A DNA stretch of 20,000 nt from an uncultured virus (IMG/VR IMGVR_UViG_3300042400_001066) (Duplodnaviria; Heunggongvirae; Uroviricota; Caudoviricetes): the IMG/VR virus record IMGVR_UViG_3300042400_001066. One strand, written 5' to 3'. Position 1 is the first letter of the stretch, and each line of letters begins with the position of its first letter. This document shows positions 1,003 to 20,000 of this stretch, piece by piece. Under the pieces are notes generated by a model, which did no database searches, was not told the DNA's origin, and saw only the letters and a program-made list of their open reading frames with translations. Position numbers and translations under genes: made by a program.

Positions 1003-1032
1003 CAAAATTAATATATTTTTTTCAAATGTCAA
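1003..1032 (-). promoter_or_regulatory. Bacteroidota sigma70-type promoter (-33 TTG / -7 TAnnTTTG)
   Basis: Minus strand reads TTG-N19-TAATTTTG-CA, just upstream of the 482..976 ORF. Confidence 0.65.
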
Positions 1033-1444
1033 GCGTTATTTTACTTTTTTCTGTAAATTTTTTGTGACAATCTTTACAAAGCACCTCTAGCTTGTTTAGA
1101 TCCTCTACGAATAACCTATCGTGGAATGGTTTTATTTCGGAGTAATCCCTTAAACTACCACAGGGCTCAATGTGATTTACTTCTACATCTTTTTTTAAGA
1201 ACATTTTTTTACAATGATTGCATTGCCATTTTTTTAACAAGGCAGAATAAGCCCTTTTAAGTATCTCTTTTCTAAAAGGACAAGAGTATAACCACCTCTG
1301 TCTTAAAAAAGCTCTAATGGCACCAAAAAAAGCTGATTTGGTCATTGTACCTCCACAATATTCTCTCACTACTCTAGGATTAACTACCTTTTTCTTTTTT
1401 CTAGGAGTTGTGGTGTTGGATTTTTTTACTGTCTTTCTTCTCAT
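1022..1444 (-). CDS. Zn-binding HNH endonuclease
   Basis: CNHC...VEVNHIEP...LEVLCKDCHKKFT: two CxxC pairs flanking a beta-beta-alpha-Me motif, with a basic N-terminus. Confidence 0.85.
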   Translation of the reverse strand: MRRKTVKKSNTTTPRKKKKVVNPRVVREYCGGTMTKSAFFGAIRAFLRQRWLYSCPFRKEILKRAYSALLKKWQCNHCKKMFLKKDVEVNHIEPCGSLRDYSEIKPFHDRLFVEDLNKLEVLCKDCHKKFTEKSKITLDI

Positions 1445-5317: not shown

Positions 5318-5413
5318 GAGTCAGAACAGGATTCGAACCTGTATTGTGTATGCTTGCACATTACATCATTCACATTCATTAGTGAATAGCGTCTACCATT
5401 CCGCCACCTGACT
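5318..5413 (-). tRNA. tRNA-Leu-like RNA with non-canonical anticodon arm (pseudo-tRNA or tRNA mimic)
   Basis: Acceptor stem AGTCAGG/TCTGACT; D arm GCG-GAATGGTAGA-CGC; T arm ACAGG-TTCGAAT-CCTGT; long variable region. No canonical 5-bp/7-nt anticodon arm and no encoded CCA. Confidence 0.75.
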
Positions 5414-16972: not shown

Positions 16973-17061
16973 TTTTTATGATTTTTAAAGATATTAATTA
17001 ATTTAAAATAATGGTGTAAAATTAGGGTTTATCTATTTAGTGAATTGTTAATAATTCTTAA

Positions 17062-17262
17062 TTATTTATTAATAAGTGTAAAAAAATCTAGTTCTTTGAA
17101 ATACAGAAATTCTCCGTGTTCGTCTGTCAAAGGAAATGAGCAGTCTATTATTGTACTCTGAACCATCAATCCCTCTTTGCCTTGTTGAATCTCATAGCCT
17201 GTATTCTGCCAATATACTTTAGTTCCTTCTGAAATAGCTTTTTTAATTTGTTCTAATGTCAT
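17062..17262 (-). CDS. Conserved phage hypothetical protein
   Basis: Start re-set to MTLEQIKKAISEGTKVYWQNTGYEI (ATG 17262) to remove the overlap with the upstream gene. Confidence 0.65.
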   Translation of the reverse strand: MTLEQIKKAISEGTKVYWQNTGYEIQQGKEGLMVQSTIIDCSFPLTDEHGEFLYFKELDFFTLINK

Positions 17263-17282
17263 AATTTTATTAATTTTATGGG

Positions 17283-17486
17283 TTAATCTTCCAATTGTTC
17301 GTTGTATGTAAATGTGTTCGGCTTCCCCTGTTCTATCCAATTTAGGATTTCCCCTTTATATGCAACTTCTATACAAGGAATACCCCCCTCTGTATGTAGT
17401 TGATATAAAGGTCTCCCCTCGTTGTCTCCCTGTGGCTCTATAGTTCCTGTCCACAGGTAAAAAAAGAATATTATTTTAGCTATCAT
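17283..17486 (-). CDS. Hypothetical protein
   Basis: 67-aa ORF with a short hydrophobic N-terminus. Confidence 0.6.
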   Translation of the reverse strand: MIAKIIFFFYLWTGTIEPQGDNEGRPLYQLHTEGGIPCIEVAYKGEILNWIEQGKPNTFTYNEQLED

Positions 17487-17504
17487 CTGTTTAATTTTAA
17501 TTGG

Positions 17505-17837
17505 TTAGTATGCTCTTGTTGGTAAATTTTGGTTTTGTTCGTATGAAAGGCTTTCCCATTCTCCCTCTTCGGGATTTGTTAAACTATGAAAATAGCGTTT
17601 CAATTCTTCTGCAATTTTTTCTAGCTTTAATTGCTTTTTTGAGGTAATTTCTTTCCCATATGCGTTTATTGTGTTATTCTCGCTTATAGCCCCCAGCATA
17701 CCCCCTCCTAGATAGTTCTGATAGGCTGACATTTTTTCGCCCTTGAAACCTAACGTAGTGAGGTCAATTTCAATTCCTCCGCCTCTTGACGAAAGTTCTT
17801 GTCTTAATGTAATTTCTTCAAAGTTAATTTTTTTCAT
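17505..17837 (-). CDS. Hypothetical protein
   Basis: 110 aa; contains a Gly-rich SAYQNYLGGGMLG motif. Confidence 0.7.
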   Translation of the reverse strand: MKKINFEEITLRQELSSRGGGIEIDLTTLGFKGEKMSAYQNYLGGGMLGAISENNTINAYGKEITSKKQLKLEKIAEELKRYFHSLTNPEEGEWESLSYEQNQNLPTRAY

Positions 17838-17879
17838 TTGTTTAAATTTTTATTGTTATTTTTTATAAGATATTTAGGT

Positions 17880-18122
17880 TTATTCCTCAATTTCAATCAA
17901 TTCTCCGTTTATCAATTTATACTGATAATCTTCTTTATCTGTCCATTCAGTATAGTATATGAATTCATCCTCGAATGCTTCTTCCATAGAAGAGTATCCC
18001 GCATCAGAGCAAATAGCTATAGCATCCTCTTCCTTTGATACATAATCTATTCCGTCATTGATTACCCATCCTTTATTCATCCCTTGATTAGTTACACTAC
18101 ATTTTCTTGCAAATTTTGTCAT
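17880..18122 (-). CDS. Conserved phage hypothetical protein
   Basis: ARKCSVT.QGMN.GWV..DG..Y...YYTEW pattern. It begins 23 nt after the predicted ribozyme cut. Confidence 0.7.
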   Translation of the reverse strand: MTKFARKCSVTNQGMNKGWVINDGIDYVSKEEDAIAICSDAGYSSMEEAFEDEFIYYTEWTDKEDYQYKLINGELIEIEE

Positions 18123-18139
18123 AATTTTTAATTTTAATT

Positions 18140-18189
18140 GGTTAAGACGCTTTGCAGCGTTTCGACTACTTAAGTCTCTTCAGTTAACC
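18140..18189 (-). ncRNA. Type I hammerhead ribozyme
   Basis: Minus strand: GGTTAA CTGAAGA GACT-TAAGT-AGTC GAAA CGCT-GCAA-AGCG TC TTAACC. The full catalytic core (CUGANGA, GAAA, UH) and three perfect stems are present. Predicted cleavage is after GUC (18146/18145). Confidence 0.92.
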
Positions 18190-18190
18190 T

Positions 18191-18358
18191 CTAGTGAATT
18201 ATCACTCCGTTAGGTGTATATTCAATCGTTTTACCCTGTGCCTCTAGAAGTCTGTAGTATTCTGACTTCTCCATAGTGTAGCCCTCTTTGATTGAATAGC
18301 CTACATTTTGAGGTAATTTTGCAACTTGTGTTTTTTGTGTGCTTCTTTGTGCGTTCAT
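18191..18358 (-). CDS. Small protein (55 aa) paralogous to the N-terminus of 14331..14909
   Basis: Manually translated: MNAQRSTQKTQVAKLPQNVGYSIKEGYTMEKSEYYRLLEAQGKTIEYTPNGVIIH. Confidence 0.75.
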   Translation of the reverse strand: MNAQRSTQKTQVAKLPQNVGYSIKEGYTMEKSEYYRLLEAQGKTIEYTPNGVIIH

Positions 18359-18383
18359 TTTTTGTGTTTTATTGGTTAGTTAA

Positions 18384-18689
18384 TTATTTAGATAAGATTC
18401 TATGTTCTGTAATATTTAGCCGTGTTCCTCCTTGACAAGCAACGTCAAATGAAGCATAACGGCTATCCGCTTCGTTAGATATTTTTATTGCTTTCACTAC
18501 ATTGGCATAGTTATATTTTAGCTCTAAATGAACACCTTTGCCTTCGTTTGCCTTTCTGTCGTATACCTCAATAGTGATAGGTATATAGCCGTCTCCTAGT
18601 TTTTCTATTCCGTTAAACAAGGCTTTTGCGTTTGTGTATACATTAGGTGATAAGCCGTCTTCCGATAATCTAATTGAATAAATTTTCAT
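18384..18689 (-). CDS. Hypothetical early protein
   Basis: 101-aa ORF on the coding strand. Confidence 0.65.
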   Translation of the reverse strand: MKIYSIRLSEDGLSPNVYTNAKALFNGIEKLGDGYIPITIEVYDRKANEGKGVHLELKYNYANVVKAIKISNEADSRYASFDVACQGGTRLNITEHRILSK

Positions 18690-18702
18690 TTTTTTTATGT
18701 TT

Positions 18703-19029
18703 TTATTTTGATGAAATTAAAAAATGTCTGTCAAATCGGTAGCCTAGAGTCTCCGCTATATCGTCACAAGCCTCCAGCCACAAAGACGTGTAATATACGG
18801 CTTTAGGACTATTTTGTACCTTTTTCCCTAAATACCATAGGTCTCTACTACCTCTATCAATTTGTTCTTGATAGCAAAGGTTCTTATACTTTTCCTCGCT
18901 TAGTTGCGCTTTGAGTTCTCTCAGTGTCTCGCAGTCTTGAAGTAGTAAATTGTAGACTACTTGCAAATGAGAATTTGTAGCTTTAATTTGTCCGCTTTTT
19001 AGCATCTGGAATTTTTGTGTCTTTGTCAT
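18703..19029 (-). CDS. Hypothetical protein, first gene after the early promoter
   Basis: 108-aa ORF with an A-rich leader. Confidence 0.65.
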   Translation of the reverse strand: MTKTQKFQMLKSGQIKATNSHLQVVYNLLLQDCETLRELKAQLSEEKYKNLCYQEQIDRGSRDLWYLGKKVQNSPKAVYYTSLWLEACDDIAETLGYRFDRHFLISSK

Positions 19030-19110
19030 TTTTTTACTTTTTTTAAGATTTGTTAATATTTGTTAATTTTATGTGTATTCTATATAATAGCTTCGCTACT
19101 AAATATGATG

Positions 19111-19140
19111 CAAAGATAGTACATATATAGAACTTGTCAA
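19111..19140 (-). promoter_or_regulatory. Consensus Bacteroidota sigma70 promoter (probable major early promoter)
   Basis: Minus strand TTGACAAGTTCTATATATGTACTATCTTTGCA, i.e. TTG-N19-TATCTTTG, pointing into the gene array. Confidence 0.8.
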
Positions 19141-19429
19141 GCCCCCTAGACGTTAAAGACTGTAAAAAGATATTAATAAATGTAAATTAAAAGATCACCC
19201 CTTTCTTAACACAATTTAACGAAACCCCTCATATAACATTCTAAATTAAATACCTCCGATTATCTTGTTAAACTTTGTTAAGAGTTTCAGAGAGACACGA
19301 TAGTTTTGCTATATCTAAGCTACTAGGATATTGATATGTAGATGGGCTTAAATGGGCGGATAGGAGGCTTAGGGTCTATAACCCAGCCTTTACCCTCACC
19401 AGCCAGAAAATAATCGCTTAGAACGCCTC

Positions 19430-20000
19430 TAATGAGATATTGTATAAATATATTCGGACAAATTTGTCTTTTTTTCCTACTGCTAACTGCACCCCTCCCG
19501 TTTTCCCGCCCCTACTTTGTCCCTCCCCCGCCCTTTTGGTCCTATTGGTCCCTACTCTATAAGGTCCTCGAGGTCCGCCCCTCCTTAGGACCTCCCCTGT
19601 TGGTCCCCCGCTACTTAGGTCCCCTATGTTTATGGCCCGCCCTACCCTCCAGCCCCTGTACTCTAGGCCCTATCATACCTCTAGGCCCATAGGCCCGTAG
19701 GCCCTACCCCTCTAGGCCCTGTATTAGTGAGGGGATATGTAGCCACCCCCTATATATATATTATTCTATTAGAACTCCCCTCCCCCCTCCGCCCTATGTA
19801 TATACCCCGCCCTATATATACCCGCCTATGGATATTCTGTATACTAGTAGATAGACAGACAGACGAACTAGACAGACAGACAGGCGAGACAGACTAGACC
19901 TCCCCCGAGCAGAGCAGAGCAGAGCGGGGAGCAGAACTCCCCCTAGCCACAACGCCCACGCCCTAGAGAGTTCCCCCGAAACTATTCTTCGCTAATGGAA
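19430..20000. repeat. GC-rich, C-skewed low-complexity non-coding region (probable genome terminus or terminal repeat)
   Basis: C-runs, 13 GGNCC sites, (TAGGCCC)n, (AGAC)n at about 19853-19899, (GAGCA)n at about 19907-19925, and agaactcccc twice (19771, 19934). No credible ORF. Confidence 0.7.

Follow-up and report, generated by a model that had tools for sequence, protein, structure and literature searches.

A type I hammerhead ribozyme between small genes of an uncultured freshwater phage and its probable role in self-cleavage of the early polycistronic transcript

The window examined here, a 20,000-nucleotide stretch that represents, in reverse-complement orientation, the first 20 kb of a 49,180-base uncultured virus record (IMG/VR IMGVR_UViG_3300042400_001066; CheckV completeness ~45%), contains a complete type I hammerhead ribozyme at 18140..18189 on the minus strand, which is the coding strand. 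The ribozyme is a member of a phage subfamily placed between small co-directional genes, and it most likely self-cleaves the early polycistronic transcript of this uncultured freshwater phage, a reading to which we assign a probability of roughly 0.8 from the sequence and its relatives.

Along the minus strand, stem I of the ribozyme is open, while stems II and III are capped. The 5′ strand of stem I (GGUUAA, 18184..18189) pairs with 18145-18140 over 6 bp and is followed by the core C3 U4 G5 A6 N7 G8 A9, which reads CUGAAGA in the window (18177..18183). Stem II consists of 4 bp (GACU/AGUC; 18176-18173 with 18167-18164), with G10.1-C11.1 as the closing pair, and carries the 5-nt loop UAAGU (18172-18168). 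The core residues G12 A13 A14 (18161..18163) precede a 5-bp stem III (18160-18156 with 18151-18147) that begins with A15.1-U16.1 and is capped by a GCAA tetraloop (18155-18152). C17 of the GUC site lies at 18146, and the cut is predicted at 18146/18145, after C17 and before U1.1 (18145), a position that we take from the established hammerhead consensus; the 3′ strand of stem I (UUAACC, 18140..18145) would form the 5′ end of the downstream RNA. A lone A (18190) separates stem I from the TAG of the preceding ORF (18193-18191), and another A (18139) directly follows stem I and might form a tertiary pair with the U (18168) that ends loop II. The predicted cut is followed by an A/U-rich leader of 23 nt (18123..18145) and then by the ATG of the next ORF (18122-18120). 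The structure put forward in the original prediction, with all core bases, stems I and II of 6 and 4 bp, a GCAA-capped stem III and a GUC triplet, is confirmed base for base, as are its claims that the ribozyme lies on the coding strand one base past a stop codon and that the cut falls 23 nt before the next ATG.

All elements of the hammerhead class as defined in the methods of PMC3088659—core C3-A9, G12-A14, A15.1-U16.1, and an H17 other than G—are present, and the core-adjacent pairs 10.1-11.1, 1.1-2.1, and 15.1-16.1 are G-C, U-A, and A-U, with no mispair. The minimum free energy (MFE) fold of 18193-18123 is the hammerhead three-way junction plus an unpaired leader (−13.2 kcal/mol, z −2.1); in the shuffled control, 6 of 200 sequences folded equally well. 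The downstream start codon is unpaired already in the MFE fold of the uncleaved RNA. The element is probably an active-type, constitutive hammerhead of type I.

Rfam alone provides borderline evidence for this identity. The original prediction had named the Rfam hammerhead models as a check, and the outcome is divided: RF00163 (Hammerhead_1) aligns with the ribozyme end to end (model positions 1-45), with the type I topology, stem I open, and all core positions, but the score of 24.0 bits (E 0.0017 over 501 nt; 0.07 over the 20-kb window) falls short of the gathering score of 34 bits and leaves the element outside RF00163 by that threshold. The RAGATH-1 hammerhead model (RF03152) returned 17.6 bits against a cut-off of 56.3. 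Membership in RAGATH-1 was rejected on this score and on the absence of the upstream RAGATH-1 hairpin, the region of which aligns poorly and falls within the end of the upstream 55-aa ORF; in the model consensus, the ribozyme half of RF03152 does share the CUGAUGAG-ACU and GUC-uaag flavour with this subfamily. The main text of Weinberg 2017 (PMC5737381) contains nothing on RAGATH-1. Family copies at 20 other loci also all scored below the Rfam gathering scores (best RF00163 score, 32.6; best RF03152 locus, 34.9). The subfamily falls under the Rfam cut-offs in every examined case, and would therefore be missed or under-reported by routine annotation.

Querying viral contigs with the exact 25-base core and stem II string of the window returned one other match, in a 23-kb contig (L005). 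When six positions were opened to N, leaving 19 fixed bases within the core and stem II only, at least 125 viral stretches matched; by a rough estimate, 19 fixed bases would give about one chance match or fewer in a collection of such order. Removal of duplicates left 110 unique sites, including the window, among the matches listed. The pattern leaves stems I and III free and fixes stem II, which is hence invariant by construction. Complete type I hammerheads were present at 101 of these 110 sites among the matches listed, judged by the presence of U16.1, an H17 other than G, at least 3 bp of stem III, and complementarity within stem I. Within the 101 copies, stem I is 6 bp long in 100, stem I and stem III take 36 and 61 distinct sequences, respectively, and H17 is C in 89, A in 11, and U in 1. 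The nine incomplete sites include some in which stem I is apparently closed by a loop and which would represent other topologies.

Pairing was evaluated in an alignment of 55 copies (A1), taken from the 74 with a stem III hairpin of at most 24 nt among 99 unique complete, well-flanked copies. The core columns C3-A9 are invariant except for N7, and G12 A13 A14 are invariant throughout. In these rows, which were preselected as complete hammerheads, 100% of 823 pairing cells hold standard pairs, and double changes occur at 9 pairs (6/6 in stem I and 3/5 counted in stem III). The covariation score was 0.613, compared with 0.109 for shuffled alignments (0/500; the shuffles ignore relatedness) and 0.034-0.086 for slid-partner controls. 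Covariation in stem II was observed solely outside the pattern-selected set, in lake contigs and in a copy from a complete phage record (both below). Conservation extends beyond the core: a G-C pair forms the outer end of stem I in 50 of the 55 aligned copies, and among the matches listed an A lies 5′ of stem I in 99/99 unique family copies and 3′ of it in 88/99. Loop II begins with U in 99/99 of the matches listed and is mostly U-N-A-A-U; the UAAGU of the window is a rare variant, found in 2 of 101 copies among the matches listed.

A covariance model (R1) was constructed from 51 aligned phage copies, with the window, both L005 copies, and a further related contig (L114) left out. R1 scores the window at 70.6 bits over 18197-18132 (E ~1e-15, by rough calibration). 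The features by which the subfamily is defined alongside R1—an A, a 6-bp stem I with a G-C end pair, and a second A; a GACU/AGUC stem II; a 5-nt loop II starting with U; and a location between co-directional ORFs—are all found in the window. These comparisons settle the identity of the element as a hammerhead. Across 78 loci, which were not de-replicated, R1 recovered 132 copies, with at least one in 75 loci and at least two in 39; together with the at least 125 stretches matched by one narrow pattern, these counts show that the subfamily is abundant in viral contigs. The copies share one strand per locus, and in 39 of the 78 loci (L016-L095) two to four are spaced a few hundred bases apart. 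The 49-kb record of the window, in contrast, holds a single copy: searches for further ribozymes with Rfam (E ≤ 1) over the other 29 kb, and with RF00163 and R1 over the record, found only this one.

Natural hammerheads need a tertiary contact for cleavage at cellular Mg2+. The last base of loop II and the base after stem I are U/A in 80, A/U in 4, G/A in 7, G/G in 5, and other combinations in 3 of the 99 copies among the matches listed; their mutual information is 0.394, a value that 0 of 300 shuffles reached, with relatedness uncontrolled. These positions form a candidate tertiary pair that would dock loop II on the end of stem I, which we offer as a lead only. For the window itself, the invariant A at −1 and the covariation of loop II hint at such a contact. 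From the window sequence, pairing of loop II with the A/U-rich 3′ leader in a pseudoknot was also considered, but it was dropped, as inspection showed that the complementarity is not kept in other members.

Among the close relatives, L005 shares near-identity with the window over a stretch that runs from the 55-aa ORF (~100 nt upstream) across the ribozyme into the start of the leader, and its ribozyme differs solely at the apex of stem III, where the top U-A pair is replaced by C-G and the tetraloop is changed; on sequence, this apex change is compensatory. Homology between the two breaks ~15 nt past the ribozyme and resumes at the ATG of a 110-aa ORF. In the intervening region, L005 carries a 79-aa ORF that the window lacks and, after it, another hammerhead of this kind, in which stem I is the same as in the first copy and stem III, N7, and loop II bases differ. 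L114, a contig of 105,849 bases, contains a homologue of the 55-aa ORF and a hammerhead, followed by yet another downstream ORF.

Lake-metagenome contigs from four runs were also aligned to the region. An allele shared by runs X12 and X18 combines 18175 T>C with 18165 A>G, which converts A10.2-U11.2 to G-C and is compensatory within stem II. The same allele changes loop II to the family consensus (18169), alters N7 (18179), and carries 18182 A>G, by which U4 of the core becomes C. With depths of 61.5 of 83.9 in X12 and 9.8 of 17 in X18, the U4-to-C allele is the major allele in both runs; such a substitution in the hammerhead core should weaken catalysis. In one contig of a third run (X23), at a depth of 4.3, the 110-aa ORF follows the ribozyme immediately, and stem III resembles that of the second L005 copy. 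The 24 runs listed as containing the sequence are all lake or freshwater DNA metagenomes.

The 80-aa protein encoded downstream of the ribozyme has a homologue (L004; ~50% identity) in a 63-kb phage record rated 100% complete (G002), where it is likewise preceded by a type I hammerhead of the same family (67.9 bits with R1). Compared with the window, this copy has identical stem I and loop II sequences, a U-A rather than A-U pair at 10.2/11.2, and another stem III. A type III hammerhead scoring 40.6 bits (cut-off 48.5) lies one small ORF upstream of the type I copy in G002; it occupies L004 2155-2211 (= L012 14045-14101), with the type I copy at ~2425-2490 (= L012 14315-14380), and the stop codon of the small ORF between them is the UGA of the CUGA box of the type I copy. 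At the two other loci with a homologue of the 80-aa protein (L002 and L003; two of three), the R1 search found no hammerhead before it. At 2400-2500 in L002, ahead of the 80-aa homologue, a terminator-like hairpin occurs instead, together with a TAnnTTTG match resembling a promoter; a transcription start may there do the same job in place of a ribozyme cut.

Placement of the subfamily between co-directional genes is stereotyped. Flanks of 400 nt or more were available for 67 copies among the matches listed. When same-strand ORFs of at least 40 aa are counted, 33 of these copies have the next ORF start 20-39 nt past the cut, and 50 have it within 59 nt; the 23-nt leader of the window is inside this family mode of 20-39 nt. 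An upstream same-strand ORF ends from −10 to +9 of the ribozyme start in 48/67 copies among the matches listed. After de-replication to 62 copies among the matches listed, 42 have a longest upstream frame that stops between −10 and +4 relative to the ribozyme start, and 14 of those 42 use a UAG whose last two letters are the invariant A and the G that opens stem I. In 3 of the 62, the frame ends at the UGA inside the CUGA box (L004 and L005 show such stops); 10 frames run beyond −12, and 6 copies have no long frame.

The genomic setting of the ribozyme is that of a compact, one-strand phage gene array. All plausible genes of the window are on the minus strand. Upstream of the ribozyme are ORFs of 108 and 101 aa (18384..19029; 19029-18703 and 18689-18384, respectively) and the 55-aa ORF (18191..18358), homologues of which precede hammerheads in L005 and L114; downstream are the 80-aa ORF (17880..18122) and the 110-aa ORF, which starts at 17837. 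Searches of these five ORFs against Pfam and PHROGs returned zero families, blastn of window positions 17000-19500 against a phage GenBank collection gave zero matches, and a protein-guided search of viral contigs for the 101-aa ORF gave 15 pattern matches, of which 0 were confirmed. Farther downstream, the same strand encodes a helicase, an exonuclease, a family A DNA polymerase, an HNH endonuclease, and a primase/helicase. The gene order is T7-like, and the small left-end ORFs are plausibly early genes. The HNH ORF (1022-1444, minus strand; PHROG 1985, E 2.7e-17) is located between the DNA polymerase and primase/helicase genes and is possibly a homing endonuclease.

The best promoter-like site by consensus (TTGACA-16 nt-TATCTT; 19111..19140, minus strand) is upstream of the three ORFs and overlaps a TAnnTTTG match. 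A consensus scan found no further minus-strand TAnnTTTG between this site (19118) and the start of the 110-aa ORF (17837), and no terminator-like site on the minus strand near the ribozyme; we infer that the flanking genes are co-transcribed as one unit. TAnnTTTG occurs 47 times in the window against 32.6 expected and is not clearly enriched, with 6 of 200 shuffles reaching 47. This motif, which we take to be a pointer to Bacteroidota, and the A-rich leaders without a Shine-Dalgarno sequence allow a weak guess that the host belongs to that phylum. Upstream of the promoter-like site, the minus strand is G-rich, repeat-like, and ORF-poor over 19430-20000, while the rest of the window is A/T-rich; the same stretch is internal in the L005 contig and therefore need not be a physical genome end. 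A tRNA gene with a long extra arm (5318-5413, minus strand; 96 nt; Rfam tRNA 39.2 bits), which ARAGORN left without a name and with a four-base anticodon, atga, may have an enlarged anticodon loop or a small insertion; this tRNA-like gene is ~12.7 kb from the ribozyme, and the analysis lent no support to the connection that the original prediction drew between the two.

A hammerhead on the coding strand between co-directional genes would, on cleavage, split the first three ORFs from the rest. The early polycistronic RNA would fold as soon as the 3′ strand of stem I had been made and would then be cut after C17. The upstream product would comprise the three small ORFs and, because of the type I topology, nearly the whole ribozyme with stems II and III, ending in a 2′,3′-cyclic phosphate. 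The downstream product would begin with a 5′-OH, the six stem I bases, and the unstructured A/U-rich leader, with 23 nt in all to the ATG of the 80-aa ORF. Bacterial 5′-end-dependent decay prefers a 5′-monophosphate. The two halves of the message would probably gain independent stability and translation, and the downstream gene would receive a standard, context-free leader. As the start codon is unpaired both before and after the cut, an effect on stability or uncoupling is likelier than the unmasking of a ribosome site. Observations that count against this as the best explanation include the scores below both Rfam cut-offs, the candidate status of the tertiary contact, the U4-to-C allele, the single copy in the record, the two of three 80-aa homologue loci without a hammerhead, the start codon that is already accessible before the cut, and the preselection of the rows used for the covariation count.

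Intergenic hammerheads in phages, and the idea that they process transcripts, have been known since 2011. In the excerpted text of Perreault et al. (2011; PMC3088659), hundreds of bacterial hammerheads are described, many of them in prophages and often bordering individual genes or short gene blocks; in vitro cleavage was shown for three tandem arrangements, and long phage transcripts are proposed to be processed into gene-length mRNAs. The same excerpts describe a hammerhead 13 nt before an early gene of the haloviruses HF1/HF2 and a transcript 5′ end that maps no more than 3 nt away from the site (PMC3088659). The processing of polycistronic phage mRNA envisaged in the original prediction holds up insofar as the hammerhead is real, conserved, and situated between co-directional genes, whereas its novelty does not, the proposal having appeared in that paper (PMC3088659, as excerpted). 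Like the phage and prophage hammerheads of those excerpts, the window's ribozyme has the consensus core and an intergenic coding-strand site between small phage genes, and its subfamily, too, often has several copies per region. The subfamily is set apart from that set, as far as the excerpts describe it, by its exact 6-bp stem I, the A on both sides, the GACU/AGUC stem II (fixed by our search), and a 5-nt loop II that is mostly U-N-A-A-U.

Two further systems are similar in function. Nearly all T7 transcripts are polycistronic and are processed at specific sites, according to the portion of PMC6938266 consulted, and the RNase III sites of T7 resemble the present case, in function and not in kinship, as defined cuts between the genes of a one-strand, T7-like array. 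In T7, a host protein enzyme acts on a hairpin; a hammerhead would instead cut itself independently of the host and leave 5′-OH and cyclic-phosphate ends. The synthetic hammerhead insulator RiboJ, engineered from the ribozyme of a plant satellite RNA, retains a hairpin on the RNA downstream of its cut; under the type I layout found here, almost all of the ribozyme would remain with the upstream RNA. RiboJ works alike in that a hammerhead just before a gene strips away upstream context and leaves a fixed, short leader; in the abstract of PMC6206723, this engineered insulator raised transcript abundance about twofold in E. coli and raised protein as well. The role of bacterial and phage hammerheads was still called unresolved in the relevant section of a 2019 review (PMC6765202).

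Several other readings of the junction were weighed. The ribozyme and leader could be a portable junction at the DNA level, a homology patch for the exchange or loss of small early genes to which cleavage is secondary. Four different right-hand neighbours follow the same 55-aa gene and hammerhead—the 80-aa ORF in the window, the 79-aa ORF and second hammerhead in L005, another ORF in L114, and the 110-aa ORF in X23—and the window–L005 homology ends ~15 nt after the ribozyme and returns at the 110-aa ORF ATG. However, the 36 stem I and 61 stem III variants among the matches listed are complementary, which indicates selection on RNA pairing and not on DNA identity; the core is invariant, and the X23 layout comes from one low-depth contig. 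We consider it unlikely that exchange is the primary role, and the two roles are compatible and can coexist; the polymorphism in gene content suggests that the module also marks, or helps, gene swapping. A switch gated by translation, in which folding is blocked while a ribosome terminates at a stop codon abutting stem I and cleavage thereby reports or is timed by upstream translation, would account for the stop 1 nt from stem I in the window, for the frame ends at −10 to +4 in 42/62 copies among the matches listed (14 with a UAG from the invariant A and stem I G), and for the L004 and L005 stops formed by the UGA of the CUGA box. Compact phage genomes, however, put most stops beside whatever follows, and the stop distance varies from −10 to +17; tight packing of phage genes explains the closeness of stop codon and stem I equally well, and we regard gating as an improbable main function.

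The score under the Rfam gathering score (E 0.07 per window) and the frequency of the U4-to-C allele in two lake runs would both suit a chance match or an inactive relic, which is nevertheless very unlikely given the 70.6 bits from an independent family model, the presence of the flanking A residues, the stem I G-C end pair, and the loop II pattern, and the compensatory changes in near-identical relatives. That RNA bounded by a pair of hammerheads with a shared stem I sequence closes on itself, giving circular or religated RNA as in viroid-like RNAs, is a possibility raised in the excerpted text of Perreault et al. (PMC3088659), and L005 has the appropriate arrangement, with two identical-stem I copies around one 79-aa ORF. 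The same excerpts report that no spliced or circular product was detected (PMC3088659); the 49-kb record of the window has a single copy, and both copies have the same stem I in only 3 of 6 two-copy contigs among the matches listed. We consider circularization extremely improbable here, and self-cleavage of the early transcript remains the preferred reading.

What the present analysis adds is modestly new: the scores of the subfamily under the Rfam cut-offs, the placement figures, the candidate tertiary pair, the polymorphism at the junction, and the U4-to-C allele. It provides an RNA annotation for an otherwise unannotated early region and predicts an exact processing site, 18146/18145. The geometry of a stop at stem I and a start at 20-39 nt, the junction polymorphism, and the candidate tertiary pair are handles by which the role of the subfamily can be tested. 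Most tentatively, these features could be combined: the subfamily might be a natural, portable gene insulator and swap joint, composed of the ribozyme and a ~23-nt leader, with folding timed by the terminating ribosome, an extension that we hold as possible but rather doubtful. If it were true, freshwater and other phages would insert, replace, and delete small early genes at ribozyme junctions, where a terminating stop codon is built into, or touches, stem I; each newly placed gene would gain a clean 5′ end of its own, and the message upstream would gain a structured 3′ end capped by a cyclic phosphate.
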